Positions 5,569 through 61,718 of a stretch of DNA of 64,000 nucleotides are shown in pieces; positions within the stretch are counted from its first letter, which is position 1, and each line of letters opens with the position of its first letter. This stretch comes from an uncultured Chlamydiales bacterium. Lineage in GTDB: Bacteria; Chlamydiota; Chlamydiia; Chlamydiales; JAAKFR01. The position numbers were made by a program, and so were the translations under genes. The DNA is taken from the NCBI GenBank assembly GCA_963699155.1, contig OY969414.1, positions 64,001-128,000 of the forward strand. Reading direction: 5' to 3'. The notes under the pieces are model-generated. The model saw only the letters and a program-made list of their open reading frames with translations. It did no database searches and was not told the DNA's origin.

Positions 5569-6005
5569 ACATTGTTCTCTTTGCGCCTGAAATCCCTCAA
5601 AACGCCGGTAATATCGCACGCAGCTGCGCTGTTACCGGCGCTACCCTGACACTTGTCCGCCCCCTCGGCTTCAACCTCACCGACAAACAGCTCAAACGCT
5701 CCGGCCTCGACTACTGGAGCACGCTCAACTTCCGCATCGTCGACAGCCTCGAGGAGGCCCTCCAGGAACCCTTCTACTTCTTCTCAACAAAAGGTAAAAA
5801 GAACTACACCGATATCGCCTACTCACCCCACTCCACACTCATCTTCGGCTCCGAAACTGCCGGCCTGCCCCCCTGGATCCACGCCCAATGGCCCCACCTC
5901 TTCCACACCATACCCATGAAGCCCCCTGCTCGCTCCCTCAACCTCTCCAACGCCGTCGCCATCGTCCTCTACGAAGCCCTCCGCCAGTTAGATTTTAAAT
6001 TTTAA
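5565..6005 (+). CDS. trmL: tRNA (cytidine/uridine-34 2'-O)-methyltransferase, SpoU family
   Basis: PEIPQNAGNIAR, GLDYW, FGSETAGL and RSLNLSNAVAI motifs. Confidence 0.92.
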   Translation: MNIVLFAPEIPQNAGNIARSCAVTGATLTLVRPLGFNLTDKQLKRSGLDYWSTLNFRIVDSLEEALQEPFYFFSTKGKKNYTDIAYSPHSTLIFGSETAGLPPWIHAQWPHLFHTIPMKPPARSLNLSNAVAIVLYEALRQLDFKF

Positions 6006-6008
6006 CTA

Positions 6009-6084
6009 AACGCAAAGACGCCAAGACACAAAGAAGGGGGGTACGCGAAGCGCTCCTATTTCTTTGCGACTCTGAGTCTTTGCG
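6009..6084. repeat. REP-like palindrome family A, copy 1
   Basis: aacgcaaagacgccaag...gggtacgcgaagcgc...gtctttgcg; same element at 19898, 44543 (reverse) and 60691. Confidence 0.85.
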
Positions 6085-6206
6085 CCTTTACCCCTCGCTG
6101 ACTTCGTCAGTCTCGGACAATCCATCAAAAAAGCGCCACTGGCGCTTTATTTGAGGTACCTTGTCGTTGAATTTTTTAGGCGGATTTTTCCCCACGAGCC
6201 TTACGG

Positions 6207-6530
6207 CTAGAGAGCTTCAGTGACGAGGCGGCGGAGTGAGTCGAGGTCTTTGAGGCCGACGACCCGTTTAACCTGCTTTCCGTTTTTGAAGAGGATCAGG
6301 GTGGGGATGGAGGTGACCTCGAAGCGGGCAGCGACACTGACCGACTGATCGGTATCGACTTTGGCAACTGTGAGTTTTCCAGCCATTTCTTGAGCGAGCT
6401 CTTCTACGATGGGAGTCAGCATCCGGCAGGGGCCACACCAGTCAGCATAAAAATCGATAAGAACGACACCCTGGGCAATGCCCTGATCGAAGTTGTCGTC
6501 ATTAAATTGTTTGAGATTTGACCCAGCCAT
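6207..6530 (-). CDS. trxA: Thioredoxin
   Basis: DFYADWCGPC active site, SIPTL. Confidence 0.96.
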   Translation of the reverse strand: MAGSNLKQFNDDNFDQGIAQGVVLIDFYADWCGPCRMLTPIVEELAQEMAGKLTVAKVDTDQSVSVAARFEVTSIPTLILFKNGKQVKRVVGLKDLDSLRRLVTEAL

Positions 6531-6613
6531 TTTAACTCCTCAAAAAGATTGGTAATCAGATCATAACCTGAGAGTGGAAAAAATTCAAGGGTATGGTTAT
6601 GATTTTTGCCCAT

Positions 6614-6697
6614 GCGGCCATGGCGGAATTGGTAGACGCGCTAGATTCAGGTTCTAGTCGGGGCAACTCGGTGGATGTTCGAGTCATCTTGGCCGCA
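6614..6697 (+). tRNA. tRNA-Leu(CAG)
   Basis: Acceptor stem GCGGCCA/TGGCCGC, D-arm GGAATTGGTAGAC, anticodon arm CTAGA-TTCAGGT-TCTAG, long variable arm, TTCGAGT T-loop. Confidence 0.93.
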
Positions 6698-6736
6698 AAT
6701 ATAAGCCATTCCTGCTCTGGGAATGGCTCAAATAGG

Positions 6737-6902
6737 GGCTGTATTGAAAAATTTAAGCCGCTCGAATTTAGCCAGATTTGGCCTCCAGTTTTGGAAGCAC
6801 GAGTGAAGAAGATAGCCCCAGCGCTATCTTCGATCGAGTGGTTAAAAAAATGGAGGACCAAAGATGGTTAAAGGCGAGCAGCTTAAATTTTTCAACACAG
6901 CC
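6737..6902. mobile_element. 166-bp MITE-like element, copy 1
   Basis: Terminal inverted repeats GGCTGT(A/G)TTGAAAAATTTAAGC; flanked by 9-bp direct repeat TCAAATAGG (6728-6736 and 6903-6911); reverse-complement copy at 53368. Confidence 0.88.
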
Positions 6903-6921
6903 TCAAATAGGTGATAGTTAG

Positions 6922-8118: not shown

Positions 8119-8135
8119 TTTTATCTCTTGGTCTC

Positions 8136-9332: not shown

Positions 9333-9399
9333 TTGGACTTTGTGGATAAACAGTCCCTCTGATATACTGTCCAACTAAAAACAGAATTTGAGGCATCGG

Positions 9400-10116: not shown

Positions 10117-10579
10117 AACCGAAATTACTACTTCGGCAGAAGAAACTATTGCCTGGGGAAAAGAGCTCGCCAAAGAGCTGCGACCTGGTGCTGTGGTTTG
10201 CCTTTTTGGCGATTTAGGGGCGGGAAAGACAACACTGATAAAAGGAATCGTGGAGGCGGTGACAGGGAATAATGCTGACTCTGTCTGCAGCCCTACCTTT
10301 TCTTATTTAAATATCTATCCTGGCCCCTGTCCGGTTTATCATTTTGATCTCTATCGACTCCAGGATGCCGAGGATTTTATCAGCATGGGATTTGAAGAAT
10401 ACCTTCTAGGCGAAGGGATCTGCTGTGTGGAGTGGAGCGAAAGAATCGAAACCATCCTGCCCTCCCACTGCCTCAAAATCAGCCTAGAATATGGTGGAGA
10501 AGAGGAGAGAAAGATTCATTATGAAGTTCCAAGACGCTCACTTTCTGATCACGGTTGCCAATGCCGAGGATCTTCCTGA
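10085..10579 (+). CDS. tsaE: tRNA threonylcarbamoyladenosine biosynthesis ATPase (start uncertain)
   Basis: GDLGAGKTT, SPTF, YHFDLYRL and VEW motifs. Confidence 0.93.
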   Translation: MSINGSRQLSKTEITTSAEETIAWGKELAKELRPGAVVCLFGDLGAGKTTLIKGIVEAVTGNNADSVCSPTFSYLNIYPGPCPVYHFDLYRLQDAEDFISMGFEEYLLGEGICCVEWSERIETILPSHCLKISLEYGGEEERKIHYEVPRRSLSDHGCQCRGSS

Positions 10580-11844: not shown

Positions 11845-11853
11845 GTAAGCTCT

Positions 11854-13908: not shown

Positions 13909-13930
13909 ATACCTATGCTATATCAATGTT

Positions 13931-15142
13931 ATGACAAAATTAACTATTCAAGATTTAGACATCAAAGGGAAAAAGGTACTGCTGAGAGCCGATCTCAATG
14001 TGCCTCTCGACGGGGATAACAATATAAGTGATGCCTCACGTATCGAGGCGAGCCTTCCCTCCATTCAATACATTCTCGATCATGGCGGCGCAGTGATTCT
14101 GATGAGCCACTTGGGGCGTCCGCGCGGAGCTCCGCTCGCCGATCTCTCATTAGCACCTATTGCCCACTTTCTGAAAGCAGTGCTGGCGGCGCCTGTTACC
14201 CTGGCTCCTAATTGCATCGGGAGCAAGGTGCAGGAGAAGGTTGACGCGCTCAAGCCGGGCGAGGTTCTGCTACTCGAAAATTTAAGATTCCATCGCGCTG
14301 AAGAACATCCTGAAGAGGACCCTTCCTTCGCTAAAGAGTTAGCGAGCTATGGCGACTGCTATGTCAACGATGCCTTTGGATCTGCCCACCGCAAACATAG
14401 CTCCACCTACACGATTGCACAATACTTCCCCGGGAAAGCTGCAGCAGGCATTCTCATGGAACAGGAGATCCGCTTTTTAGGGAAACTGGTAACAAATCCC
14501 GAAAGACCCTTTGTGACACTGCTTGGTGGGGCCAAAATTTCAAGTAAACTGGGTCTCATCAAAGCATTATTGACAAAAGCAGATCGTCTCTTGATCGGTG
14601 GCGGAATGACCTACACTTTCTTAAAAGCCCAAGGGATTGCCACAGGTGATTCTCCGGTGGAGGAGGAGCTCGTACCCTTAGCCGGCTCTTTGATCAAAGA
14701 TTATGGTGATCGCCTCGTTTTGCCAGAAGATTTAGTAATCGCTGCTGACTGCAGGGAGAATGCCCCTGCGAAAACGATTATTTGCCAAGAAGGCATTCCT
14801 CCTGGCTACCAAGGGGTCGATATCGGACCTAAAACCCTCGAAACATTTAAAGCGCTGCTCGCCCCTGCCAAAACGGTACTCTGGAATGGCCCTCTCGGTA
14901 TTTATGAATGTGAAAGCTTTGCCAAAGGCACCCTAGGGATTGCCCACTATCTCGCCACTCTCAAAGCCACTACAGTGGTCGGTGGAGGCGATTCGATCGC
15001 TGCCATCAATCAGGCCGATGTTGCCGACAAAATCACCCATCTCTCCACCGGCGGCGGCGCCACCCTAGAATTTCTCGAATATGGCACCCTCCCCGGCATC
15101 GATGCCCTCTCCGACAAGAAAAGTCAGCCAGTCGGCAGTTAA
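13931..15142 (+). CDS. pgk: Phosphoglycerate kinase
   Basis: RADLNVP, MSHLGRP, LLENLRF, GGAKISSK and HLSTGGGA motifs; start placed at MTKLTI. Confidence 0.96.
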   Translation: MTKLTIQDLDIKGKKVLLRADLNVPLDGDNNISDASRIEASLPSIQYILDHGGAVILMSHLGRPRGAPLADLSLAPIAHFLKAVLAAPVTLAPNCIGSKVQEKVDALKPGEVLLLENLRFHRAEEHPEEDPSFAKELASYGDCYVNDAFGSAHRKHSSTYTIAQYFPGKAAAGILMEQEIRFLGKLVTNPERPFVTLLGGAKISSKLGLIKALLTKADRLLIGGGMTYTFLKAQGIATGDSPVEEELVPLAGSLIKDYGDRLVLPEDLVIAADCRENAPAKTIICQEGIPPGYQGVDIGPKTLETFKALLAPAKTVLWNGPLGIYECESFAKGTLGIAHYLATLKATTVVGGGDSIAAINQADVADKITHLSTGGGATLEFLEYGTLPGIDALSDKKSQPVGS

Positions 15143-15146
15143 GCGA

Positions 15147-16334: not shown

Positions 16335-16336
16335 GT

Positions 16337-16370: not shown

Positions 16371-16485
16371 TACCCCCCCCCGTACTGGGAAAACAGATCA
16401 ACCTTCGCTATAGTAATTCCAGTTGTTTTTTTATTAGTTCTTAATAATTTTAGTAAATACTTATACCTAAACAGGAAAAATAAAG

Positions 16486-17107: not shown

Positions 17108-17596
17108 TCAGGCGAGGGTGGGTGCTGGGCCTGGGGGAGGCTGATCTGATGAGATGTGGGGCTGGGTGGAGATGCGCTTGTGGTAGGCGTAGACCATCAT
17201 TCCGATGGCAATAGTTCCTGAGAGAGTGGCAACTCCAATTAAGGCGATTCCGAGCTGGGCAGAAGTCAGGACGCCAGATGCGCCAAGGGCGCCAAAAGTG
17301 ATGATGAGAGCTGCGAGGCAGAGACCCGAAATCCAATCGACCTTTCTTGTGGCAAATGAGCCGCCCAGCAGCTTAGCCCCTGCATATCCCACGCCGAGAC
17401 CTAAAGCTGTCCAGCCTGTGGTGTGGGAGGGGAAAGCGTGCGCCGCTGCAGTAATTCCGATGATTAAAAGAGCGATCATGATGCAGCTGCCCAGAAGATG
17501 GGTCATCCGTGTCTGATCGCTCTTGTTTCCGATCAGGTTGTCATAATCGTCTTTATAAGTAGCGCCATATCCCGCTACACGAGTGAGTGAGCACAT
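17108..17596 (-). CDS. Hypothetical multi-TM Inc-like protein
   Basis: Two hydrophobic hairpin units and a Pro-rich tail; resembles the neighbouring ORF. Confidence 0.65.
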   Translation of the reverse strand: MCSLTRVAGYGATYKDDYDNLIGNKSDQTRMTHLLGSCIMIALLIIGITAAAHAFPSHTTGWTALGLGVGYAGAKLLGGSFATRKVDWISGLCLAALIITFGALGASGVLTSAQLGIALIGVATLSGTIAIGMMVYAYHKRISTQPHISSDQPPPGPAPTLA

Positions 17597-18337: not shown

Positions 18338-19885
18338 ATGGCGCGCGCTAAAGGCACTTTTTCTCCTTTGAGAGCCTATTTCTGGCCGATCCACTCCTAT
18401 GAGCTGCGCAAATTTCTGCCTCTGTTGGCAATGGCCTTCTTCATCGGATTTAATTACAACATCCTGCGCAATATGAAAGATGCCCTGCTGGTCACTGCAG
18501 ACCATTCGGGGGCAGAGGTCATCCCTTTCATCAAAGTCTGGGGAATCGTGCCGGGCGCTCTCCTTCTCACCTTCATCTACAGCCGGCTCAATAACCGGTT
18601 GAAGCGCGACCACGTCTTCTCTGTGATGATCGTGATCTTCCTCGTCTTCTTTGCTCTCTTTACCTTCTGCATCTATCCTCTGCAGAATGTGATTCATCCT
18701 CACCAGACAGCCGACCTTCTCGAAGCCCACCTCCCAAAAGGCTTCATGGGGCTGATTGCGATGTTCCGTTACTGGACCTTCAGTAGCTTCTACATCATGT
18801 CAGAGCTCTGGAGCTCGACCGTTTTGTCGATGCTCTTCTGGGGATTTGCCAATGAGGTGACTCGCATGCAGGAAGCGAAACGCTTCTATGGCCTCATCGC
18901 GATCGGCTTGAACGTCGCCGCCATCACTTCAGGCCAGGTCTCCTACTTCCTCTGCAGCACCCTCTTCAAATTAAACATTTCCTTCACAGCTAATCCTTGG
19001 CACCAATCGGTGATTCTTCTCACAACTGTGGTCATCCTCTCGGGACTCGCCATCCTAGGCATCTTCAGATATATCACCCGCGAGCTCCTTTCAAGAGAGG
19101 GCCACGAAGATGTCAGAATTATTCGGAAAGAGAAGATTAAAATGTCGATGCGCGAGAACTTTGCCATTCTCGGGCGCTCCAAATATCTCCTCTCGATCGC
19201 GATCATCGTTTTAGCCTATAACCTGGTCATCAACCTCGTCGAGGTAATCTGGAAAGATCAGGTGCGTCAGCTCTATCCCGACCCCAACCATTTCAACGCC
19301 TACATGAGTCAGATCACCACGATCACCGGCATCATCTCTTTCTTCACCTCTCTGCTCATTTCGGGACAGTTGATCCGCAAATTTGGCTGGACCCTCGGCG
19401 CTCTGATCACCCCTCTTATCCTCCTAGTAACCTCCTGCGCCTTTTTCTTCTTCTTTGGTCGTGATAGCATGGCAGGCGCATTGGCAATTCTCGGTACCTC
19501 TCCCTTAGCTCTCGTCGTCTTCTTTGGCTCTACGCAGAACTGCATTTCGAGAGCCTCCAAGTTTACCCTTTTTGACGCGACCAAAGAGATGGCCTTCATT
19601 CCGCTCAGCATCTCAGATAAGCTAAAAGGGAAAGCTGCTATCGATGGCGTCGGCTCCCGCCTCGGCAAGTCGGGCGGCTCGCTCATCCACCAAACCCTGC
19701 TCGTCGCCTTCTCTTCGATAGCCGCCAGCGCCCACATCGTCGCCGGCATTCTCTTCCTCGCTATCTTCTTCTGGATCGGCGCCGTCCTCTCCCTCGGCCG
19801 CCAGTTCAATGCCCTCCCCCATGCGCAACCCACACCCACACCCACACCCGAAAAACCAGCTCCCGAACTCGCCTCCGCCCCCTAG
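18338..19885 (+). CDS. npt: Nucleotide transport protein (ATP/ADP translocase, Npt/Tlc family)
   Basis: NYNILRNMKD, GAEVIPFIKVW, SELW, FWGFANE, DATKEMAFIP and KGKAAIDGVGSRLGKSGG motifs. Confidence 0.95.
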   Translation: MARAKGTFSPLRAYFWPIHSYELRKFLPLLAMAFFIGFNYNILRNMKDALLVTADHSGAEVIPFIKVWGIVPGALLLTFIYSRLNNRLKRDHVFSVMIVIFLVFFALFTFCIYPLQNVIHPHQTADLLEAHLPKGFMGLIAMFRYWTFSSFYIMSELWSSTVLSMLFWGFANEVTRMQEAKRFYGLIAIGLNVAAITSGQVSYFLCSTLFKLNISFTANPWHQSVILLTTVVILSGLAILGIFRYITRELLSREGHEDVRIIRKEKIKMSMRENFAILGRSKYLLSIAIIVLAYNLVINLVEVIWKDQVRQLYPDPNHFNAYMSQITTITGIISFFTSLLISGQLIRKFGWTLGALITPLILLVTSCAFFFFFGRDSMAGALAILGTSPLALVVFFGSTQNCISRASKFTLFDATKEMAFIPLSISDKLKGKAAIDGVGSRLGKSGGSLIHQTLLVAFSSIAASAHIVAGILFLAIFFWIGAVLSLGRQFNALPHAQPTPTPTPEKPAPELASAP

Positions 19886-19897
19886 TCTTAAATTCAG

Positions 19898-20071
19898 ATT
19901 CAACGCAAAGACGCCAAGACGCCAAGACACAAAGAAGGAGGGTACGCGAAGCGCTCTTCTTTCTTTGCGCCTCTGCGTCTTAGCGTCTTTGCGTTGAATT
20001 TTGAAGAAGGCTTGGCGTCTTTGCGTTGAATTTTAACGAAGGGTTGGCGTCTTAGTGTCTTTGCGTTGAAT
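19898..20071. repeat. REP-like palindrome family A, copy 2 (19898-19999) plus two extra right arms
   Basis: attcaacgcaaagacgccaag...gggtacgcgaagcgc...gtctttgcgttgaat, then gtctttgcgttgaat arms ending at 20031 and 20071. Confidence 0.88.
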
Positions 20072-20098: not shown

Positions 20099-20608
20099 TT
20101 ATTGGGTGAGGGAGCGGCGGTAGCGGATCATTAGCTCGAGGAAGGCTAAGCCGGCCATCGCCATGAAGATGATGTAGACATAGGAGGGAAAGACGAAGTT
20201 GAGGGTGAGGCCGATGAGGACAACGAACTGAGCAACGGTGGTGATTTTGCCCCACCAGATCGCCTTGACCTCGTAGTTGGTCCATCCACGGACGAGACCG
20301 AGGAAGAGGCCGAAGAGGCAGATGGAGGCATCACGGGAGAGAAGGGCGCTGAGCTCGAAGAAGTTGATCTTCTCTTCCAGAAAGAAAATGCCTCCGGCGA
20401 AGAAGACGAAAAATTTATCCATGATGGGATCTAAAACAGCGCCAAACTGAGTGGTCATGCGTTGGCGGCGTGCCAGATAGCCATCGAGAAAGTCTGTCAC
20501 CATCGCCAGGATAATTGCAAGGAGGCGAATATAGGGATTGCTTTGAAGAAAGGCAAGTGCGAACCCAGCTCGAGAAAGTGAAAGGACATTAGAAAAATTA
20601 AGAATCAT
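20099..20608 (-). CDS. pgsA: CDP-alcohol phosphatidyltransferase (PgsA family)
   Basis: TDFLDGYLARR..TQFGAVLDPIMDK signature. Confidence 0.88.
   Translation of the reverse strand: MILNFSNVLSLSRAGFALAFLQSNPYIRLLAIILAMVTDFLDGYLARRQRMTTQFGAVLDPIMDKFFVFFAGGIFFLEEKINFFELSALLSRDASICLFGLFLGLVRGWTNYEVKAIWWGKITTVAQFVVLIGLTLNFVFPSYVYIIFMAMAGLAFLELMIRYRRSLTQ

Positions 20609-25795: not shown

Positions 25796-25799
<4 letters not shown>
25170..25799 (+). CDS. coaE: Dephospho-CoA kinase (start uncertain)
   Basis: AVTGGIASGKTT, SADEIVH, IHPEV and EVPLLFE motifs. Confidence 0.92.
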
Positions 25800-27217
<1,418 letters not shown>

Positions 27218-29217: not shown

Positions 29218-31929
29218 ATGGTGAAAAGTGGAAAAGTGAAAGCGGCTCCCAATTCGAAGGAGTCGGAGATGATGGTGCTGGGCTGCATGCTCACCAGCGT
29301 CAATAGTTTAAATATTGCCTCTGATGCGCTCGATGAAAATGATTTTTACTACACTGAGCATCAGATTCTCTTTCAGGTCTTAAAAATTGCTTATAAGCAG
29401 AATAGGCCGGCCGATGTCCATATCGTCTGCGAGGAGCTGAAACGGCTCGATAAATTAGATGCTATTGGCGGGGCCGCATACGTGACAACGCTGGCCCAAT
29501 ATGCAGGGACCTCCGCCTACATCGAAGAGTATGCCGAGATTGTGAAGTCGAAAGCAATTTTGCGGCGGATGATCCAAGCGGCACAGGTGGTCGAAAAAAA
29601 TGCCCTTGAAGAGCCTGGCGACGTCCATGAAGCACTCGATGAGGCACAAGGACTCTTCTTTAAAATCAGCCAGAATGCCAATCCGGGCGCAGGTATTCTG
29701 ATCAGCGATCTTCTAAGTGGGGTCAAAGCCACCACACAAATTCCCTTCCTGAAAGAGCTGCAGGATCGCCAAGAGGAATTCCGTTTAAAAGGCCCTCAAG
29801 AGGCCAAAATTACAGGAATCCCCACCCACTATCTCGACCTGGACAAACTGATCAACGGCCTCAACAACTCCAACCTGATGATCGTCGCAGGCAGACCCGC
29901 CATGGGAAAGACAGCCCTCGCCGTCAATATCGCCGAAAATGTCTGTTTCAAAAACAACATGCCAGTCGGCATCTTCTCGCTCGAAATGACCGCAGAGCAG
30001 CTTCTCCACCGTATCATCTGTTCTCAAGCCGAAGTCGAATCGGACAAGATCCGTACCGGAAACTTAACCGGAGCCGATTTCCAACGCATTGTCAGCGCTG
30101 TCGGCCAGATGCAGAAGCAGACGATGGTGATCGATGACCAACCAGGGCTCAAAATCACCGACCTGCGCGCACGCGCACGTCGCATGAAGGAGAGCTTTGG
30201 GATCCGCCTGCTCATCATCGACTATCTCCAGCTGATCTCCGGATCAGGCACCTCCCGAACCATAGAAAATCGCCAAAGCGAGATCTCCGAAATCTCCCGC
30301 ATGCTGAAGACCCTCGCCCGCGAGCTCAACATCCCCGTCATCTGCGCCTCCCAGCTCTCCCGCAAAGTCGAAGACAGAGCCGGCCACCGCCCCATGATGA
30401 GCGACCTCCGCGAGAGTGGCTGCCTCACCGGTGATGCTGAAATTCAAGATGCAGATACTGGAAAAATCTATACCATCAAAGAGCTTGCAGATAGGCAAGA
30501 GCAGACAACCCTCTACGTTCATGCCGTCGATGAAAAATTAAAAATAGGTCGACATAAGCTAGTCAAAGCATTCTATTCTGGCAAAAAAAAGGTCTATCAG
30601 CTCACCACACGTTCTGGACGTTCTATTAAAGCCAGCGCCAACCATCCTTTCTTAAAGCTAGGGGGCTGGACACCTCTCGAACAGTTAAAACCTGGTGATC
30701 GTATCGGCTTGCCACGGGAATTGCGCTCCCCTCTCCATGCAACAACAAATCGAAAAGATGAATGGGCATTTTTGGCTCATCTGCTTGGCGATGGCTGTAT
30801 CCTTCCCAAGCAACCTTACCACTTTACAAGCCAGGATGAAGAAAATTTAGCTACAGTGGGAAAGTTATCTAATCAATTGTTCCACATCCTTCCTCGTTAT
30901 ATCCCCCAAAGGAACTGGACTCATGTCTATTTCCCCTCGCCCTACCATCTCACGAAAGGGAAATACCATCCTATCACCGAATGGTTTAATAGCTTAAAAA
31001 TTAATCGTGTGCGCTCTTACGAAAAAAAGTTGCCCCAGGAACTTTTTGAAAGACCCTTAGATGAGATTTCTCATTTTCTCCACCATCTTTGGGCTACAGA
31101 TGGAAATATCAGCACAAAACGGTTAAGAAATAGAAGCCCTTCAGCCGCTATTTATTATGCTTCATCTAGCAAATTACTAGCCAATCAAGTGCAATCTCTT
31201 TTGCTGAGATTAGGCATCAGTAGCTCTACTCATGGCCGCTCCTCGAAAAAGGGATACCGCACCATGTATCATGTCCACATTCAGGGTGCTGAAAATCAGA
31301 TACGCTTTTTAAAGACCGTGGGATGTGCTGGTAAACGTGGCAAGATCATCCCTCAATTATTGGATGATTTAACAAGGATAGAAAGCAATCTCAACATAGA
31401 CGTAATCCCGAAAGAGGCTTGGAAACTTTTCGTTGAGCCCGCAAAAGTGAAAACGGGTATGGGTTGGCGCGAGGTTTGTGAAGGGCTTGAAATGTCCTAT
31501 TGTGGAAGCACTCTCTTCAAATCGGGAGTTTCTCGCCATCGAATGAAAAAACTTTTCCGGGTTTTAGGAGATGAAAAGCTACTGCAGCTGGCTCAATCTG
31601 ACGTTTATTGGGATGAAATCTCTTCAATTGAAGAATTGGGCGTTGAAGATGTTTACGATGCAACAGTTGAGGGAGTCCACAATTTTGTAGCTAACGATAT
31701 TATCGTTCACAATAGCATCGAGCAAGATGCTGATATTGTGATATTTCTGTTGCGCAGGGAGTACTATGATCCCAACGATAAGCCAGGGATGGCGGAGATT
31801 ATTGTGGGGAAAAACCGGCATGGAGCCGTCGGGAGCGTCAATATGACCTTCGTTAAGGAGCTGGTCCAGTTTAGGAACTATACGCCGATCAAGATGGAAG
31901 CGTATAACGACTCCTTCGCTAATCTTTGA
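29218..31929 (+). CDS. dnaB: Replicative DNA helicase DnaB precursor containing an intein
   Basis: AGRPAMGKT, FSLEM, IIDYLQL, SQLSR and SDLRESG|...|SIEQDAD motifs. Confidence 0.96.
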   Translation: MVKSGKVKAAPNSKESEMMVLGCMLTSVNSLNIASDALDENDFYYTEHQILFQVLKIAYKQNRPADVHIVCEELKRLDKLDAIGGAAYVTTLAQYAGTSAYIEEYAEIVKSKAILRRMIQAAQVVEKNALEEPGDVHEALDEAQGLFFKISQNANPGAGILISDLLSGVKATTQIPFLKELQDRQEEFRLKGPQEAKITGIPTHYLDLDKLINGLNNSNLMIVAGRPAMGKTALAVNIAENVCFKNNMPVGIFSLEMTAEQLLHRIICSQAEVESDKIRTGNLTGADFQRIVSAVGQMQKQTMVIDDQPGLKITDLRARARRMKESFGIRLLIIDYLQLISGSGTSRTIENRQSEISEISRMLKTLARELNIPVICASQLSRKVEDRAGHRPMMSDLRESGCLTGDAEIQDADTGKIYTIKELADRQEQTTLYVHAVDEKLKIGRHKLVKAFYSGKKKVYQLTTRSGRSIKASANHPFLKLGGWTPLEQLKPGDRIGLPRELRSPLHATTNRKDEWAFLAHLLGDGCILPKQPYHFTSQDEENLATVGKLSNQLFHILPRYIPQRNWTHVYFPSPYHLTKGKYHPITEWFNSLKINRVRSYEKKLPQELFERPLDEISHFLHHLWATDGNISTKRLRNRSPSAAIYYASSSKLLANQVQSLLLRLGISSSTHGRSSKKGYRTMYHVHIQGAENQIRFLKTVGCAGKRGKIIPQLLDDLTRIESNLNIDVIPKEAWKLFVEPAKVKTGMGWREVCEGLEMSYCGSTLFKSGVSRHRMKKLFRVLGDEKLLQLAQSDVYWDEISSIEELGVEDVYDATVEGVHNFVANDIIVHNSIEQDADIVIFLLRREYYDPNDKPGMAEIIVGKNRHGAVGSVNMTFVKELVQFRNYTPIKMEAYNDSFANL
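30421..31713 (+). mobile_element. 431-aa intein with LAGLIDADG homing endonuclease in dnaB
   Basis: Starts CLTGD after RESG; block B (IKASANHPF); endonuclease blocks FLAHLLGDG and FLHHLWATDG; ends VYDATVEGVHNFVANDIIVHN before Ser+1. Confidence 0.95.
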
Positions 31930-34767: not shown

Positions 34768-36618
34768 ATGATGTGGCGTTACCCAGTAGAATATGATGTG
34801 ATTGTGGTGGGAGGGGGTCATTCGGGCTGTGAGGCGGCTTTTGCGGCGGCACGGTCGGGAGCGTTGACCCTTCTTTTGACCATGAATCTTGATACTATTG
34901 CCAAAATGAGCTGCAATCCTGCTGTGGGCGGGATTGGGAAGGGCCATATGGTGCGGGAAATCGATGCACTGGGCGGCGAGATGGGCAAGGTGATCGATCG
35001 TACGGGGATCCAATTCCGGATGCTGAATGCCTCTAAGGGACCTGCTGTGTGGGCTCCCAGGGCTCAGGCAGACAAGGTGGCCTACCAGTTTGAGATGAAG
35101 CATAGGCTGGAAAACTGCCCCAATCTTCATTTGCATCAGGGGACGACGGAAGGAATCGAGGTGGTAGATGGCCAGATTCATGGTCTCTATACCCAAGAGG
35201 GCATCGCCTATAGTGCCAAGACGGTGATTTTGTCGTCGGGCACCTTTATGCAGGGCCTTTTGCACATTGGCGAAACTCATTTCTCAGGGGGGCGTGCAGG
35301 GGATAAACCGGCTGTGGGGATTTCCAAGAGCTTGACTGAGCAGGGATTTCAGCTGGGAAGGCTCAAAACAGGGACACCGCCTCGCGTCAATAAGAGGTCG
35401 ATCGACTTTTCCAAGACCGAAGAACAGCCACCCGAAGAGGGAATCCGGTTCTCCTATGACGACGAGCCCTATGAGAGATTGCCACAGATCTCCTGCTGGA
35501 TCACCTACACGTCGGCTGAGACCAAAAAGATCATTCAAGACAATCTGCACAGGTCGCCTCTCTATACGGGGAAAATCAAAAGTATTGGCCCCCGTTACTG
35601 TCCCTCGATCGAAGATAAGGTGGTCCGCTTTGCCGATAAAGAGCGCCACCAGATCTTCCTCGAGCCAGAAGGGCTAAATACTAATGAAATCTATGTGAAT
35701 GGGATCTCCTCCTCACTTCCCTTTGATGTGCAGCTTGCCTTCCTCCACTCCATTCCTGGGCTCGAAAAGGCGGAGGTGACCCGTCCTGCCTATGCGATCG
35801 AATATGACTATCTCTTGTGCGGGCAAGTAGGGCCGACACTCGAAACAAAACGGGTCGAAGGGCTCTTCTTTGCAGGGCAGATCAATGGCACAACGGGCTA
35901 TGAAGAGGCTGCGGCGCAGGGAATCGTCGCTGGCATCAATGCGGCAGCGAAGGTTTTAGGCAAACCTCCCCTCATCCTGCAGCGCCATGAAGCCTACATC
36001 GGGGTGATGATCGATGACCTTATCACCAAGCCGATCGATGAGCCCTACCGCATGTTCACCTCAAGGGCTGAGCACCGCCTCCTCTTGCGCCAAGACAATG
36101 CCGACATGCGCCTCTCACACTATGGCTACGAGCGGGGAATTCTGGAGAGACGTCGCTATGAAAAGGTCCTCCACAAACAAAAAATCCTCGAAGAAGAAAC
36201 GCTTCGTCTGCAAAGCCTCTACAAAAATGAGGGCAGCCGTGGCTCTTCGCTCGCCCAGCTGCTCTGCCGTCCAGAGAATAGCTACGACTCACTTTTGGCC
36301 AGCTATCCCGACGAAATGGTCGATTATGGCAAGGAGCTCAACTTTCAGATCGAGCTCAATCTCAAATATGCGGGCTATATCGAACGGCAGGTTTCCGATA
36401 TCGAGAAGCTCTCCCATATCGAAAAGATTAAGATTCCCGCTGATTTAGATTACTCACCTATCAGCGGACTGCGCAATGAGGCGAAACAGAAATTGGGAAA
36501 AATCAGGCCCCAAACAGTAGGACAAGCCTCTCGCGTCAGCGGAGTCTCTCCTTCCGATATTCAAGTATTGATGATCGCTATTAAAAAAGGTTATGTTTCG
36601 TCTACTGATACTGAATAA
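34768..36618 (+). CDS. mnmG: tRNA uridine-34 carboxymethylaminomethyl modification enzyme
   Basis: [34 protein letters not shown] and [16 protein letters not shown] motifs. Confidence 0.97.
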
Positions 36619-39134: not shown

Positions 39135-40567
39135 TACTTCTCATAACCAGGTGGCGCCTTGCCGTTGTAGTCGATGCCCTCGAGGATGAGGGCAAATTTC
39201 ACCGGAACCTCACCCGTGGAATAGAGGGGATAACTGCCTTTAAACTGGACTGTGCGGAAGTAGGGAGTGAGAGCCTTGGTGTAATGTTCGATGTACCAGG
39301 GAGCATGTTCTAGGGGCTTATTTTCGATAACGACAAAGAAGCCTCGATGACCAATTTCGCGATCTTCCATCTGTGGCCAATAGGAAAACTGGGTTTTGCG
39401 GGATCTGCTGATGTTAAAGTAGTAGGCCCGTTTTTGCTCAGGCGCATAAAAGCTCAGGATGCTCACATTTTGGTATTTGTCGGAGAAGAGGAAATCATTA
39501 TCAGGCTGATAACCTGCTTGGGTGAGTGCAGGAGCCAGGTTTTGCCATCCCAGGGATTGTCGGAAGGGGTTGGCAGAATAGGGCAAGGGAAGCCAAGGGA
39601 TCATGAAGGCAATGAGGATCATCAAAAGAGAGAGAGCCGTTCCAATATAGAGCCATAGGGCGCCCTTCTTCAGCTGTTCTAAAGAGAGCCAAGGCACTAA
39701 TGTCAGCCCGATGGGATAGAGATAAGCTGCCCAATTGGGTTGCATCCTTTTGGCAAAGCTCAGCACCAGATAAACCAGCACGAGAGCAGGAAAGGCGGCG
39801 ATAACCCAGAGTGAGGGCTTTTTTCGGATATAAAAATAGCTTATTACCAGTAGTACAAAGTAGATGGGTGACAATAGCCCGATCTGTGCGATCAGAAATT
39901 CCCCAAAGTTTCCCGCTTTGACAGAGGCAACTGCTGTTGTGACATGTTTGAAGGTAGCCCACTCATGGGCCTGGTTCCAATATAAGCTGGGCAGAAGGGC
40001 AAGTAGAGAGAGAGCGATGCCACCCACAATCTTCCACTGACGTAGCGGCTTAAATATAAACAGTAATGGAAGAATAATCGGCCAAAAAAGAAAGGCAGTC
40101 CACTTAAATAATGCCCCTAGAAGAATACAAAGGCCTGCTAACAGATAGTAGGGCCCTCTCATCACAGCCCAAGCGGCCAGAGTCATAAAGAGAATAGCTC
40201 CCCCATCGGTCGTCGCCGCAAAGGAAAGATAGAAACCCAATGGCGAAAGCACCATCACGACACCCGCCCATAGGGCTGTTTTCTTCTGCACCCCTACAGC
40301 CATAGCTAGCTGATAGACCGCAACGCTGAGAAAAAACCCGATCAGCAGCGCCCCCACCCGCACCCCAAAAGGATGATTCCCAAAAAGTGCTGTTGTCAGC
40401 CATATCTGCCAGGCAATGCCCGGCGGCTTGGAATAGTAGCCCCAGTCGAGCTCCTGGCTCCAGCTCCAGTACTGCGCCTCATCCGGCGACAACCCAATGG
40501 TCCCCTCCCCTATCACCACCCCCAGCAGAATCGCTTTTATCAACAAAATAGCCCACAGCCAGCGCAT
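39131..40567 (-). CDS. GT-C fold glycosyltransferase (ArnT/PMT-like, GT39/GT83)
   Basis: PDEAQYW..LDWGYYSKPPG motif; multiple TM segments. Confidence 0.85.
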   Translation of the reverse strand: MRWLWAILLIKAILLGVVIGEGTIGLSPDEAQYWSWSQELDWGYYSKPPGIAWQIWLTTALFGNHPFGVRVGALLIGFFLSVAVYQLAMAVGVQKKTALWAGVVMVLSPLGFYLSFAATTDGGAILFMTLAAWAVMRGPYYLLAGLCILLGALFKWTAFLFWPIILPLLFIFKPLRQWKIVGGIALSLLALLPSLYWNQAHEWATFKHVTTAVASVKAGNFGEFLIAQIGLLSPIYFVLLVISYFYIRKKPSLWVIAAFPALVLVYLVLSFAKRMQPNWAAYLYPIGLTLVPWLSLEQLKKGALWLYIGTALSLLMILIAFMIPWLPLPYSANPFRQSLGWQNLAPALTQAGYQPDNDFLFSDKYQNVSILSFYAPEQKRAYYFNISRSRKTQFSYWPQMEDREIGHRGFFVVIENKPLEHAPWYIEHYTKALTPYFRTVQFKGSYPLYSTGEVPVKFALILEGIDYNGKAPPGYEKY

Positions 40568-40651: not shown

Positions 40652-40903
40652 ATGAGTTATGTATCGTTTAGAACCCGCCCAAAAGATGAAAAGAATCTGA
40701 AGAAATTGTGTAAAGAATTCAAGATCAACAGATCCGAAGCTTTACGATTTGCTATTGAAACGGCTGTCTCTGTTTTAGAGAAAAAAAAGAAGAGCAAACT
40801 TGCGTCGTTCATTGGCAGCTTCGAAGGTCCTGAAGATTTAAGCAGCAATAGCCGATCCATTCTTAAACAGAAATTGCTAATTTCCAATGAACGAGCTGAA
40901 TAG
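40652..40903 (+). CDS. Ribbon-helix-helix (CopG-type) antitoxin-like protein
   Basis: MSYVSFR..LKKLCKEFKINRSEALRFAI and IGSFEGPEDLSSN tail; GAGG RBS. Confidence 0.7.
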   Translation: MSYVSFRTRPKDEKNLKKLCKEFKINRSEALRFAIETAVSVLEKKKKSKLASFIGSFEGPEDLSSNSRSILKQKLLISNERAE

Positions 40904-40966: not shown

Positions 40967-41728
40967 CTATTCTCTATCGGGGAGGGAGAAGAGGTCGCGG
41001 AAGGATTGGAGGGTGACGTCGCGGTCCATGACGGCGATGCTGTCGGTGAGAGGGATGTTTTTGGGGCAGACCTCGACGCAGTTTTGGGCGTTGCCGCAGT
41101 CGCTGACACCTCCCTCTTGCATGAGGGGGCGGAGTCGGAGCGAGCGCTGCTGCTTGCCGGTGGGATTGGCGTTGAAGAGGCGGGCTTGAGAGATAGCTGC
41201 GGGGCCAATGAACTTCGAGCGTGAGTTCATTTGCGGACAGGCTTCGCTGCAGCAGCCGCAGGTCATGCAGGTGGAGAGTGAATACATTACCTCTTGCTTT
41301 TTAGGCGAGATGAGGGGGCCATAGCCCTTTTCTTGCGATCCATCGACGTCAATCCAGCCATGAATCAACTTCAAATTCTCAAACATGATGGAGCGGTCGA
41401 CGATGAGATCGCGGACTAGGGGAAATTTGGTGAAAGGGGCGAGGGTAATGACATTGGTTTTGGTCTGCTTGAGGTAATTCTCGATGAGTGCGGTGCAGGC
41501 CTGGCGTGGAAAACCATTGATGAGCATCGAGCATGAGCCGCACACCTCTTCTAGACAGCCCTGCTCCCAGACAATGGGGACGACCTTCTCACCTTGTATG
41601 TTGATGGGATTTTTTTGGATCTCCATGAGTCCACTAATTACATTTTCACCCTTGCGTAAGGGCAACTCAAACTCTTCCCAATATTGCCTTCCAGGTGTTC
41701 CTCGATAGATTTTCAAGCGGTAATTCAT
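40967..41728 (-). CDS. sdhB: Succinate dehydrogenase iron-sulfur subunit
   Basis: CLEEVCGSC, CMTCGCCSEAC and CGNAQNCVEVC clusters. Confidence 0.95.
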   Translation of the reverse strand: MNYRLKIYRGTPGRQYWEEFELPLRKGENVISGLMEIQKNPINIQGEKVVPIVWEQGCLEEVCGSCSMLINGFPRQACTALIENYLKQTKTNVITLAPFTKFPLVRDLIVDRSIMFENLKLIHGWIDVDGSQEKGYGPLISPKKQEVMYSLSTCMTCGCCSEACPQMNSRSKFIGPAAISQARLFNANPTGKQQRSLRLRPLMQEGGVSDCGNAQNCVEVCPKNIPLTDSIAVMDRDVTLQSFRDLFSLPDRE

Positions 41729-44468: not shown

Positions 44469-44542
44469 TAAGTTGCAAAGTAGCAACTTAATTCAGCTTT
44501 GACAATAAAAAATTAAACGCAAAGACACGAAGTCTGCGTCAA

Positions 44543-44646
44543 GATTCAACGCAAAGACGCCAAGACGCAGAGTCGCAAAGAAATAGGAGCGCTTCGCGTA
44601 CCCTCCCTCTTTGTGTCTCTGCGTCTTGGCGTCTTTGCGTTGAATC
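44543..44646. repeat. REP-like palindrome family A, copy 3 (reverse orientation), with an extra arm at about 44515
   Basis: Loop reads gcgcttcgcgtaccc, the reverse complement of the family loop. Confidence 0.88.
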
Positions 44647-44666
44647 TCTCAGAAACACTTTTGTTT

Positions 44667-45428
44667 TTAAGTCAGTCGGAAAAAGCGCTTAGCATTAGCT
44701 GTAGTAGTCGAAGCAAGCTCTTCAATGGGAATGGCGCGTAAGCGCGCGAGGAAGCGGGCAGTTTCGATGAGGTAGGCGGGTTCATTGGTTTTGCCGCGGT
44801 AGGGATCGGGGGCGAGGTAGGGGGCGTCGGTTTCGATGAGGAGGTTGGTGAGTGGGATAGATTGGGCCACCTGTTGGAGTTCACGGCTCTTTTTGAAGGT
44901 GACGATGCCACTGAAGGAGATGTACCAGCCACGCTTTACTAATTGTTCAGCATCTTGTTGAGTGCCTGTGAAACAGTGAAGGACACCAGGAAAGTTGTCG
45001 TACCCATCTAAAATTTGGAGGAAATCGGGAAAGGCGTCGCGGCAGTGAATGATGATGGGAAGGTTGCACTCTCTGGCTAATTGAAAATAGCGGTGTAGAA
45101 AAAGCTTTTGAATTTCTTTCGTACCTGAATGGTGATAATAATCTAAGCCAGTTTCACCGATGGCAATCAGAGAGCCCCTTTTGGCGGCCTCTTCCATGAG
45201 GGGAAAAGCCGTTTCTCCTTCTTGAGCGACATCGTGGGGGGTTGTGGCTGCGGCCGTGAAGATCCAAGAATGTTGTTTAGCGAGTTCAAGACCGCGTTGG
45301 AGCTCTTGAGGATCGGTGCAGATATTGACAATCGCATCGACACCGGATTCTTGGGCTCTTTTTAAGAGAGAAGGTCTCTGTTCCCATAACGAGGCATGTG
45401 TTAAGTGAGCATGCGAATCAATCAGCAT
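44667..45428 (-). CDS. tatD: TatD family deoxyribonuclease
   Basis: DSHAH, IGETGLDY, IHCR, LHCF and ETDAPYL motifs. Confidence 0.93.
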   Translation of the reverse strand: MLIDSHAHLTHASLWEQRPSLLKRAQESGVDAIVNICTDPQELQRGLELAKQHSWIFTAAATTPHDVAQEGETAFPLMEEAAKRGSLIAIGETGLDYYHHSGTKEIQKLFLHRYFQLARECNLPIIIHCRDAFPDFLQILDGYDNFPGVLHCFTGTQQDAEQLVKRGWYISFSGIVTFKKSRELQQVAQSIPLTNLLIETDAPYLAPDPYRGKTNEPAYLIETARFLARLRAIPIEELASTTTANAKRFFRLT

Positions 45429-59585: not shown

Positions 59586-59612
59586 GCTCATAGTGTATGA
59601 ATACTGCCACAT

Positions 59613-60644
59613 ATGGTGAGCAGTGTCAGCGAAGCAGTTTTTGATAAAGAGCATTATCACGAAGAGATCTCCAAACTTTGGACTCCGGCACTTCGCTCTT
59701 TCAACCGATTAATCCGCTCTTATGTGATCTTCAACCTTGTCTTTCTGATCATTGTCTGCTCCGAAGTGGCCTGCTTTCTCTCCTTCTTTGCCCTTTTGAG
59801 TAAATCGACCGTTTTGGCCTTTACGCTGGCCATTTTTTTCATGACACTCTTCTCCTATTTTGTGCTGAAACTCTATCTACAGGCCAAAAAGCCCGATCAG
59901 TTAATGGATCTCTGCGACCTCTATCTCGGAAGATGCAAAGAGATTATCCGATATCAGGAGGGTATTCCAGAACATCATATCGCTCTCGGTCAAGCTGCCC
60001 AGAAATTTGCTGCTGCTCTCCATGAAAAAGAGTATAGCTACTATGAAGCGCCCCCCTTACTCAGCTCTCTCAACCCCACGCTCGAGCGCTTTAGCTGTTT
60101 CTGCCACTGGAAGGACCTCCACCGGATGAAAGAGGTGCTTCTCACAACTGCGGTAGAAGAGCATCTAAAGGTGGTGAAGTGCGAACCGACCAATCTGGAG
60201 GTCCATGCCGCTCTCGCCAATGCTTATGTCATGCTCTCGAGCCTCTATAGCGATCCACGCAAATATCACGATTACGACGAAGAACGCTATGTCCCCGAGG
60301 AACGCTTCTCAGAGGCAATGCAAGTAAGGTTCCGCTCCACAGCGCAGAAAGCGATCGAAGAGTTTAAAATTCTCAATGACTATGCACCCGAAGATCCTTG
60401 GGTCCATGTCCAGCTCGCCTACTCCTACCACGATCTCCAAATGCCGCTGGAGGAGATCCGTGAATATGAGATCGTCCTCTCCCTCCGTCCCCAAGACAAA
60501 GAGACCCTCTTCAAGCTCGGCATGCTCTATTTCCAGCAAGGCCTCAACGCCAAAGGGCTCCGCATCTTCGAAGCCCTCAAGCGCACTCACTACGCCAAAG
60601 CCGAAAGCCTCATCAAATTCTACGGCACCTACGAAGAAGCATAA
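59613..60644 (+). CDS. Membrane-anchored TPR protein
   Basis: Two N-terminal TMs; TPRs (EPTNLEVHAALANAY, PWVHVQLAYSYHDL, LFKLGMLYF). Confidence 0.82.
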   Translation: MVSSVSEAVFDKEHYHEEISKLWTPALRSFNRLIRSYVIFNLVFLIIVCSEVACFLSFFALLSKSTVLAFTLAIFFMTLFSYFVLKLYLQAKKPDQLMDLCDLYLGRCKEIIRYQEGIPEHHIALGQAAQKFAAALHEKEYSYYEAPPLLSSLNPTLERFSCFCHWKDLHRMKEVLLTTAVEEHLKVVKCEPTNLEVHAALANAYVMLSSLYSDPRKYHDYDEERYVPEERFSEAMQVRFRSTAQKAIEEFKILNDYAPEDPWVHVQLAYSYHDLQMPLEEIREYEIVLSLRPQDKETLFKLGMLYFQQGLNAKGLRIFEALKRTHYAKAESLIKFYGTYEEA

Positions 60645-60690
60645 CCTCGTGCCTTGCATCAGACTGATTTATCTTGAGTCTTCCTAGTCG

Positions 60691-60787
60691 ATTCAACGCA
60701 AAGACGCCAAGGCGCAAAGAAGCAAAGAAGGAGGGTACGCGAAGCGCCCTCTTTGCTTCTTTGCGCCTTGGCGTCTTTGCGTTGAAT
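60691..60787. repeat. REP-like palindrome family A, copy 4
   Basis: Near-perfect arms attcaacgcaaagacgccaaggcgcaaagaagcaaaga / complement around gggtacgcgaagcgc. Confidence 0.9.
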
Positions 60788-60800
60788 TTGTGCGAAAGAA

Positions 60801-61718
60801 TTAAGCAAGGGATTCCCAGATGACGGTGCCGACGATCAGGCCGGCGAGACAGAGGGAGTTAGCCTTCCAGTTTACCTGCTCTTTGTAGAGGAGCTGGGCC
60901 CAGCCATTACAGATGAGGATCACCCCGACTGAAAAGATGGGGAAGATCATCGCATTTTCCCAGGATCTGGAGACTTGTGGGGCGAGGATGAGGAAGAAGG
61001 TGCACGCACCATTGGCAACGCCGCCTAAGATGCCGTAATAGATCTCTGCCCCTTTGGGGAAATGGTGGTGTTTGCATAGGTAGACGACCCACTGGATGAG
61101 GGCGCCCATGAAAAAGATGGCAGGCATGAACCACTGAATATGCTGGCTGCCGAGGTGGATAGGAAGGAGTGAGGATGTCGGTAATTCTGGTTTGAGAACC
61201 ATGGCCCACCACTGGAGAAAGACGAGGAAGAGGGTGTGGACCAGAAAAATTAAGCTGGCAAAGAAGATCCAACTATTTTTGTTAGGGTTGGAGGCGCTGG
61301 TCCAGCCTGCCCAGAAGAGGCCGATGGCCACGAGGAGGGAGCCAAGGCCATTAGCGAGGGTATAGGGATGGTTAAAGAGAGACCCGAAGAGCAGTGCTAA
61401 AATGACTCCAGGCATAACTGAGGAGGTGTTGAGAATGGCAAAAGTGAGTCCTGGCGGTCCCTTTTCGAGACTCTTTCCTAATCCCCACATGAGCAGGCCA
61501 AAGATAAGACCTCCAATGATCCCGAGAATGGCCGCCCAGTTATTCCATCCATAATCACTCGTACGCACAGGATTCAGTAGGATCATGACGACGAAAGAAA
61601 AGGAGAGCTGAACGACCAGATAGGCTTTGCTAGATCCGCCTGCATCGATGCTGCGTCTCAAGCAAAAATTGCTCAGAGAGGCTAATAGTGCTGCCAAAAT
61701 CGCATAAATTATCCCCAT
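60801..61718 (-). CDS. EamA/DMT-like inner membrane transporter
   Basis: About 10 TM segments in two repeats; SLEKGPPGLTFAI and LLYKEQVN motifs. Confidence 0.75.
   Translation of the reverse strand: MGIIYAILAALLASLSNFCLRRSIDAGGSSKAYLVVQLSFSFVVMILLNPVRTSDYGWNNWAAILGIIGGLIFGLLMWGLGKSLEKGPPGLTFAILNTSSVMPGVILALLFGSLFNHPYTLANGLGSLLVAIGLFWAGWTSASNPNKNSWIFFASLIFLVHTLFLVFLQWWAMVLKPELPTSSLLPIHLGSQHIQWFMPAIFFMGALIQWVVYLCKHHHFPKGAEIYYGILGGVANGACTFFLILAPQVSRSWENAMIFPIFSVGVILICNGWAQLLYKEQVNWKANSLCLAGLIVGTVIWESLA

Follow-up and report, generated by a model that had tools for sequence, protein, structure and literature searches.

The stretch of DNA analysed here (the window) comprises 64,000 nucleotides (nt) of an uncultured Chlamydiales bacterium, bases 64,001–128,000 of a genome assembled into one contig with a length of 2,399,326 bp (G000; contig OY969414.1), and positions are counted from its first base unless stated otherwise. 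A preliminary description of the window, made by eye, reported patches of unequal C and G content arranged around inserted elements. We found that these local skews are peaks of a genome-wide silent-site bias that follows transcription units (TUs): at fourfold-degenerate sites of the coding strand C exceeds G, and the skew (negative values denote C over G) changes from about −0.1 to −0.2 at the TU start to −0.3 in the body and −0.45 to −0.75 in the last 300–500 nt. The finding is real and goes beyond chance; its anchor is the 3′ end of TUs, where it is sharpened at insertions. Genes were called with our own hexamer-based caller, which yielded 1,943 genes covering 84% of the genome, and TUs were predicted from sequence alone as runs of same-strand genes with gaps of no more than 30 nt, which yielded 1,302 units. 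The environmental chlamydia-like affiliation of the genome is shown by family matches to an NTP/NDP exchange transporter, to chlamydial-type DnaQ, DnaB and TolB models, and to a SycD/LcrH chaperone.

In the 925 genes of at least 900 nt, the fourfold skew lay at about −0.14 to −0.22 over the opening 150 nt and reached −0.45 to −0.48 over the closing 120 nt. When 1,821 genes were divided into deciles, it fell from −0.22 to −0.42: the share of C increased from 0.323 to 0.406 at the expense of G, T and A alike, and the AT skew showed no gradient. The gain of C was found in all eight fourfold boxes and in all seven C/T twofold boxes; codon positions 1 and 2 shift little, and the amino-acid change is small. 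Far from vanishing at synonymous sites, the skew was strongest there. Silent sites are pyrimidine-rich, with C over G (−0.32) and T over A (−0.17), and the standard errors of the genome-wide gradients are 0.01–0.02.

The data show that the bias is organized by TUs. A gene followed within 30 nt by a same-strand neighbour had an end skew of −0.275, compared with −0.445 to −0.581 for the TU-terminal classes, while the start skew was −0.302 for genes with such a neighbour within 30 nt upstream vs. −0.19 for unit-leading genes. Across 88 three-gene operons divided into quintiles, the skew ran from −0.09 to −0.25, then from −0.30 to −0.34, and then from −0.33 to −0.51; the gradient did not begin afresh at genes inside the operon. 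In the ribosomal-protein cluster (14 kb, at 14.3–28.2 kb of G000 and hence outside the window), it stayed near 0 for about 20 genes, then reached −0.24 to −0.28, and the last two genes had −0.41 and −0.67, thus indicating that C-ending codons are no mark of high expression. Translational selection for such codons was rejected on the grounds that ribosomal-protein genes are the least biased and that there is no reset per open reading frame (ORF).

The gradient was present in leading-strand and lagging-strand genes alike. A replication-associated GC skew does exist in G000, with a clean origin/terminus switch over the whole genome (cumulative minimum at 398,686, maximum at 1,623,431), but it amounts to only ±0.02–0.04 per 100 kb and contributes about 0.04–0.09 to the gene skew values; the window sits where the plus strand is slightly C-rich. 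As a cause of the local effect, replication skew was rejected, since it is small and since the origin-facing and terminus-facing flanks of the repeats described below show the local effect equally.

Recounting the 60-nt windows given in the preliminary description reproduced all eight hand counts exactly (40501–40560, C27:G5; 40981–41040, G29:C10; 30301–30360, C28:G11; 31801–31860, G21:C11; 19741–19800, C26:G13; 20161–20220, G24:C6; 5821–5880, C30:G9; 34801–34860, G30:C10). Over 39,988 non-overlapping 60-nt windows of the genome, G−C had a standard deviation of 6.79 vs. a binomial expectation of 5.34. Against this background six of the eight lie in the 1% tail of their own sign, but 31801–31860 (7.9% tail) and 19741–19800 (3.1% tail) are ordinary. 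The accompanying suggestion that the skew is independent of gene direction had to be abandoned: among 718 windows with |G−C| of at least 17, 494 were C-rich on the coding strand, 122 were G-rich on the coding strand and 102 were intergenic. Half of the C-rich coding windows (50%) lay within 300 nt of a predicted TU end, compared with 19% of all coding windows.

Repeats were identified by self-comparison of 1,092 spacers, 195 of which contained them, giving 311 blocks in 21 clusters. Family 1 consists of 68 blocks, each a near-perfect hairpin of 100–116 nt built of short repeated words in inverted order; four of its blocks lie in the window. These hairpins begin at a median of 5 nt behind the stop codon (no more than 15 nt in 28 of 43 cases), and therefore their non-coding flanks are uninformative. 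The fourfold skew of the last 100 codons had a per-gene median of −0.68 beside family-1 hairpins (n = 43) and −0.60 beside other repeats (n = 105), vs. −0.36 at ends with no repeat (n = 452; Mann–Whitney p = 3e-9 and 8e-6, respectively). When pooled by distance from the TU end in 150-nt bins, the skew was −0.76, −0.66, −0.55 and −0.41 beside family-1 hairpins (56 ends), and −0.48, −0.44, −0.38 and −0.33 without them. Repeat-free TU ends also carry a gradient. The share of C at fourfold sites beside the hairpins was 0.564 compared with 0.409 elsewhere, with A, G and T each down by 24–30%, and the effect was equal on the origin and terminus sides.

The preliminary description had called two of the window's hairpins copies of a repetitive extragenic palindromic (REP) element. 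No match to PF01797, the Y1 transposase of the REP-associated tyrosine transposase (RAYT) type, was found in the complete genome, and an Rfam scan of the window assigned the hairpins to no family. They are better called palindromic repeats resembling miniature inverted-repeat transposable elements (MITE-like) than REP elements with a RAYT.

The comparison with orthologues in a relative was made with G002, a sister species of the same genus with an intact rho gene, of which 1.6 Mb was sampled (dnaB lies outside this sample). The 780 reciprocal best hits allowed syntenic junctions to be classed, "extra DNA" meaning genes, or at least 100 nt more spacer, than in G002; a gain here and a loss in G002 both fit this definition. 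At the 3′ ends facing extra genes or at least 100 nt of additional spacer (n = 90), the median skew was −0.54 here and −0.30 in the G002 orthologues (paired difference −0.190 ± 0.034), while at conserved junctions with a gap over 30 nt (n = 41) it was −0.31 and −0.26, respectively (paired difference −0.053 ± 0.042). The two classes differed with p = 1e-4 here, p = 0.10 for the G002 orthologues and p = 0.026 for the paired differences. Most of the 3′-end excess is specific to the lineage carrying the extra DNA. Convergent pairs, which are certain TU ends, gave pooled values of −0.59 and −0.62 at extra-DNA junctions vs. −0.36 at conserved ones here, and of −0.34 and −0.35 vs. −0.28 in G002; a per-gene test on convergent pairs alone had low power (p = 0.11).

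The 5′-facing ends behaved differently: their skew was −0.26 beside extra DNA (n = 93) vs. −0.23 at conserved junctions (n = 72; p = 0.91). The earlier view of a skew centred on insertion points therefore holds for the 3′-facing flanks but not for the 5′-facing ones, and an effect at 3′ ends without one at 5′ ends indicates that the tract depends on which way transcription runs. Proteins were not more diverged next to inserts: the identity of the flanking 100 residues minus that of the gene interior was −0.041 and −0.003 at inserts vs. −0.022 and −0.012 at conserved junctions.

The gradient was weaker in G002 (−0.18 to −0.31 over the 1.6 Mb; terminal −0.336 vs. internal −0.233), and the end skews of orthologues in the two species were correlated (Spearman 0.24, n = 290, p = 3e-5). 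Ends with a repeat only in G002 were also more C-rich here (−0.587 vs. −0.475). As an observation in its own right, repeats occupy 280 of 735 spacers in G002, far above the 195 of 1,092 in G000, with the gene-end skew beside them hardly raised. A moderate gradient was seen in G025, which belongs to another family, while 200 kb of E. coli K-12 taken through the same pipeline gave the opposite sign (+0.06 to +0.20). The gradient is thus not general across the bacteria sampled.

Within the window, C-rich 3′ ends and family-1 hairpins were located as follows (spans of 3′ ends cover the last 100 codons; G:C counts are from fourfold sites unless stated otherwise).

1296..1595, plus strand: C-rich last 100 codons of ORF 1086–1595, which is without a family match (G3:C36).
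5706..6005, plus strand: C-rich 3′ end of trmL (TrmL family match), running into a family-1 hairpin; it contains the 5821–5880 patch, and the hairpin block starts at 6008.
6008..6167: family-1 hairpin between the convergent trmL and trxA, placed by repeat block and fold.
14843..15142, plus strand: C-rich 3′ end of pgk; the genes that it faces are missing from this junction in G002 (G6:C39; junction class C).
17108..17407, minus strand: C-rich 3′ end of the hypothetical gene 17108–17596 (G6:C32; junction class C).
19586..19885, plus strand: C-rich 3′ end of the NTP/NDP exchange transporter gene, running into a family-1 hairpin (G7:C45, 17th percentile of unit-terminal genes); the spacer is longer than in G002.
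19893..20041: family-1 hairpin 8 nt past the transporter stop codon; the minimum free energy of the spacer is −87 kcal/mol.
20099..20398, minus strand: C-rich 3′ end of a pgsA-like gene convergent with the transporter gene (G3:C39, 8th percentile).
40967..41266, minus strand: C-rich 3′ end of sdhB (SdhB match; G3:C39; third positions of the last 25 codons G1:C20).
44509..44654: family-1 hairpin flanked by the 3′ end of tatD and the 5′ end of sdhC, placed by repeat block and fold.
44667..44966, minus strand: C-rich 3′ end of tatD, running into the hairpin (G4:C33, 14th percentile).
60345..60644, plus strand: C-rich 3′ end of gene 59613–60644, previously described as a tetratricopeptide repeat (TPR) gene (G5:C31).
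60690..60791: family-1 hairpin between convergent genes, placed by repeat block and fold.
60801..61100, minus strand: C-rich 3′ end of gene 60801–61730, previously described as an EamA gene (G6:C33).

The same polarity had also been reported at 5′ gene ends and in the middle of a gene, and the sites concerned are the following.

30121..30420, plus strand: C-rich last 100 codons of the dnaB N-extein (C37:G8, −0.64).
30421..31725, plus strand: dnaB intein, residues about 402–836 (intein-type family matches over residues 400–836; fourfold skew −0.43).
31726..31926, plus strand: dnaB C-extein, with G at least equal to C at silent sites (G12:C8, +0.20).
34768..35067, plus strand: tail case, the start of mnmG being G-rich over 100 codons (G23:C11; G10:C1 at the third positions of codons 12–31).
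40268..40567, minus strand: tail case, the start of the ArnT-like gene being G-rich over 100 codons (G29:C10; G15:C1 at the third positions of the first 22).
40652..40903, plus strand: small ORF between the ArnT-like gene and sdhB, previously described as an orphan antitoxin, defined by its ORF and sequence.

The starts of the ArnT-like gene and mnmG are indeed G-rich at silent sites, and amino-acid composition was rejected as the source of these peaks in view of the third positions (G15:C1 and G10:C1). Yet a skew of +0.35 is reached by 37 of 984 unit-leading genes (3.8%) in the genome and by 2 of 29 in the window, which is unremarkable; the two starts are tail cases that make no rule. In dnaB, the skew jumps from −0.64 before the intein to +0.20 behind it, and a jump as large was met at only 0.33% of 2,113 mid-gene control points, so the mid-gene pattern is rare but is a single case. 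Gene starts beside family-1 hairpins showed a weak shift: the pooled skew of the first two 150-nt bins was +0.06 and +0.07 (n = 20) vs. −0.21 and −0.25 without hairpins, and the per-gene medians were −0.11 (n = 24) vs. −0.24 (p = 0.025). That miscalled or wrong-strand genes produce this shift was rejected, since 18 of the 20 genes carry Pfam domains in the called direction. As to the small ORF at 40652–40903 on the plus strand, it is without a neighbouring partner gene, and the longer frame 40373–40903 has no NCBIfam match.

Taken together, the results lead us to propose, with close to an even chance of being right, that the terminal C tracts are a selected loading signal resembling a Rho utilization (rut) site, placed at synonymous sites, which would stop transcription before neighbouring or accessory DNA. 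In this proposal, the nascent RNA would gain a C-rich, rut-like loading tract from the synonymous sites of the last 300–500 nt, and transcription would halt at or just past the stop codon, before the neighbouring gene or the accessory DNA. The scarcity of such C at the beginning of units and in the ribosomal-protein operon would protect these from premature stops, and Rho would be the reader of the signal now or would have been until recently. Such selection fits the data because the tract lies on the RNA strand, follows TUs and consists of silent C, and because it is weakest where a premature stop would be costliest and strongest where read-through enters accessory DNA. Sense-strand windows of 78 nt with C−G of at least 8, that is, C>G bubbles, are indeed more frequent within 300 nt of a TU end (28%) than beyond 1 kb (17%), and the fourfold skew of the last 150–300 nt is −0.45 to −0.76. 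The idea of rut-like tracts insulating foreign DNA had been raised in the preliminary description; it survives as the best-fitting reading, except that the tracts mark unit ends in general and not inserts alone, and insulation "from both sides" applies where both flanks are 3′ ends, as in convergent genes, but not otherwise. Insulation is thus the best supported reading, though unproven. Composition, position, dependence on direction, the lack of a reset within operons and lineage specificity are established by the data, whereas a role of selection in place of mutation bias, an effect on termination and Rho as the reader belong to the proposal.

On the side of such a signal we also count that few unit ends seem to have a classical hairpin-plus-T terminator. 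Hairpin-plus-T sites were found at 12.8% of 1,042 unit ends vs. 13.3% of random intragenic pieces of 165 nt, and at 16.4% of 116 ends vs. 3.4% of 135-nt pieces; in positions 1–20000 of the window they were not enriched (20 vs. 21.9 ± 4.7 in shuffles). Canonical terminators of this type would accordingly serve at most a minority of unit ends (no more than 13–16%), as far as sequence-based prediction can tell. The possibility that such a terminator downstream is needed for the skew was rejected, the skew being the same with and without one. In each of the five chlamydial genomes that were sampled, only about 7–17% of gene ends were followed by a site of this kind.

A number of observations weigh against a Rho-read signal, and the most serious of them concerns rho itself, whose own 3′ end is C-rich.

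25796..27171, plus strand: rho, frameshifted; three ORF pieces match Rho, and the last 100 codons have G6:C32.

Compared with G002 Rho, the gene is split over frames +1/+3/+1 with in-frame stops. Four single-base indels were placed against G002 and a fifth was inferred from the frame changes; three +1 changes (summing to +3) are followed by −1 and +1, so that the total length is in frame while each shifted stretch meets a stop. The pieces otherwise retain 72–93% protein identity to G002 Rho. No second copy of rho was found in the genome, and the G000 assembly thus holds no intact rho gene, while intact matches were found in 28 of the 31 genomes searched, G000 being among the 31. A generally indel-ridden assembly was rejected as the source of the break, rho being the only multi-frame case among 131 orthologue-like matches. 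None of the 24 public sequencing runs listed contains the locus, each sharing at most 0.06 of the sequence words looked for. The strongest signal is found in G000 with its broken rho, and a weaker one in G002 with an intact gene; moreover, G016 and G004, which belong to the same family as G000, have no gradient or a reversed one, though rho is present. From indel-to-substitution ratios we infer that the break would be younger than the compositional shift, and the tracts may be a recent relic; alternatively, C-rich RNA has another reader, or the rho locus is misassembled.

The form of the tract raises further objections of the same kind. Classical rut sites lie in untranslated RNA, where a loading tract is free of ribosomes; here the tract is part of the ORF and does not extend past the stop codon, the all-site skew being about 0 from 25 nt past the stop and absent over the whole interval of 25–300 nt behind it (407 TU ends with spacers of at least 250 nt). 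Beside the hairpins, G is not avoided relative to A. The gain of C at position 3 averaged +0.10 after a pyrimidine at position 2 and +0.11 after a purine; as NYC codons gain no more than NRC codons, the preference of Rho for YC is not visible, although this comparison is only a proxy for YC dimers. Lastly, the genes and TUs rest on our own caller and on the 30-nt gap rule, which makes every unit end a predicted one.

Among other explanations, a directional mutation bias linked to transcription is possible but unlikely in our estimation. Under such a bias, C would be preferred on the non-template strand (or G on the template strand), increasingly so along the TU and most of all at sites where polymerases accumulate in front of hairpins or foreign DNA. 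It would account for a pattern that follows TUs and is confined to transcribed coding DNA, for uniformity over all codon boxes and for variation among related genomes, such as a change in repair machinery might give, and it would work without a functional rho. The known process of this type, however, is the deamination of cytosines on the exposed non-template strand, and its sign is the opposite one. Transcription-coupled deamination should leave G over C and T over A on the coding strand; here T over A was found together with C over G, while the E. coli control (+0.06 to +0.20) had G over C as expected. It is also hard to reconcile with mutation that the ribosomal-protein operon, the most highly transcribed operon sampled, is the least biased, that no skew is seen in the 25–300 nt past stop codons, and that C is gained equally from A, G and T. 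To our knowledge, no lesion spectrum gives such an equal gain. We find it rather improbable that the insertion effect merely reflects a site filter, i.e., that inserts and hairpins land or persist behind TU ends that are already C-rich and hence good stops, an ascertainment effect without change after insertion. The correlation of orthologue end skews between G000 and G002 (Spearman 0.24) and the higher C content here of ends whose repeat is present only in G002 (−0.587 vs. −0.475) agree with it, as does the slight C excess of the G002 orthologues of insert-facing ends (−0.30 vs. −0.26, p = 0.10). But most of the excess is lineage-specific (paired −0.190 vs. −0.053, p = 0.026), and convergent pairs have −0.59 and −0.62 here vs. 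−0.34 and −0.35 in G002.

The preliminary description had offered, as an alternative to Rho loading, a footprint that repeated break repair, repair synthesis or gene conversion would leave at hot spots of insertion, symmetrically around the insert. At family-1 loci defined by blastn, the strand reading into the element is in fact shifted to C on both sides (56 ends, 20 starts), and the intein flanks show the same polarity. The equality of the effect on the origin and terminus sides can be claimed for such a footprint, but it was also counted against it. The symmetry fails at the 93 5′-facing ends beside lineage-specific DNA (p = 0.91), and the hairpin effect at 5′ ends is weak per gene (n = 24, p = 0.025). 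Nor is the flanking 100-residue protein identity lowered; G002 is rich in repeats (280 of 735 spacers) and yet shows a small effect, and the gradient persists at repeat-free ends. We therefore disfavour this explanation and regard it as very improbable. That the peaks are compositional noise picked by eye is scarcely credible. It could be said in favour of chance that two of the eight windows, which were eye-picked, are ordinary, and that the 2 of 29 unit-leading genes reaching +0.35 in the window compare with 3.8% genome-wide; for the 3′ effect, however, chance is refuted by the small standard errors of the genome-wide gradients (0.01–0.02) and by the per-gene tests (p = 3e-9, 8e-6 and 1e-4).

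A rut-like signal at synonymous sites would resemble known systems in part. Of the known predictors of Rho-dependent termination, tracts of about 80 nt with C over G are the principal one (Nadiras et al. 2018, PMC6144790), and here too C outnumbers G on the non-template strand for about 80 nt or more ahead of the expected transcript end. The tract described here differs in being synonymous, in lying inside the ORF and ending at the stop codon, and in forming the end of a TU-wide gradient, as well as in its occurrence in an assembly where rho is broken. Besides, in E. coli strong Rho signals are mostly antisense and ORFs are refractory, according to the same paper, while in G000 the sense strand carries the signals. 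Rho has also been described as shaping codon choice genome-wide (Dierksheide et al. 2026, PMC13323073). The sections of that work available to us propose that the preference of the termination factor for C/U-rich RNA moulds silent sites throughout the genome, and a likeness may be seen in that the least C-rich regions here are TU starts and the ribosomal-protein operon. The bias described there is a uniform, whole-gene purine excess in species with runaway transcription, whereas ours is pyrimidine-rich (C over G, T over A) and forms a positional gradient tied to unit ends and inserts; the text of that paper mentions neither gene ends nor the position along the gene.

In fungal genes, a within-gene skew gradient at fourfold sites has been linked to transcription phases (McLean and Tirosh 2011, PMC3315797). 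As far as the accessible portion of that paper goes, its polarity is the reverse of that in G000 (5′ end C-biased, 3′ end G-biased), it reaches into promoters and untranslated regions, and it is a eukaryotic (Pol II) phenomenon with no link to insertions. Rho-dependent attenuation is known at bacterial interspersed mosaic elements (BIMEs). The REP/BIME elements of enterobacteria are extragenic palindromes (RepRanger survey, PMC12306157), and, by the accessible part of this survey, palindromes close behind stop codons are common to both systems (here, the distance to the stop codon is at most 15 nt for 28 of 43 hairpins), but the hairpins of G000 are 100–116 nt long and near-perfect, and the genome is without a RAYT-type gene; skew is not mentioned in the survey. 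Our literature search, which was non-exhaustive, found no description of a TU-level silent-site gradient of C over G in bacteria or of skew flanking palindromic repeats.

Should the tracts prove to be stop signals under selection, the choice of codons towards the end of genes would carry information on the punctuation of transcription, and this information would be altered by a neighbouring insertion. TU ends and recent insertions could then be mapped from sequence only in uncultured bacteria, tests that treat silent sites as neutral would call for caution, and a natural system would be at hand for the study of termination in chlamydia-like bacteria with few classical terminators. Because the sign is opposite to that of the E. 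coli control and the trait varies within one family, its evolution should be traceable. A bolder proposal, which we put forward as a long shot, is that host genes were recoded at silent sites over about 0.5 kb within the lifetime of the genus, and that the tracts together with the long hairpins would stop read-through into newly acquired DNA as a new kind of termination or insulation signal, possibly without Rho. The strongest tracts and a broken rho occur in the same genome, and therefore the system may work without Rho.

The window contains two tRNA genes, 6614–6697 on the plus strand and 29036–29123 on the minus strand, which are its sole Rfam matches; the former overlaps a spurious minus-strand ORF (6556–6861). 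Positions 7001–9000 stand out by an AT skew of −0.28 to −0.31 and a GC skew of −0.20 to −0.24. This region covers two tandem genes resembling aromatic-amino-acid permeases (6922–8118 and 8136–9332), and its skew probably reflects membrane-protein composition.

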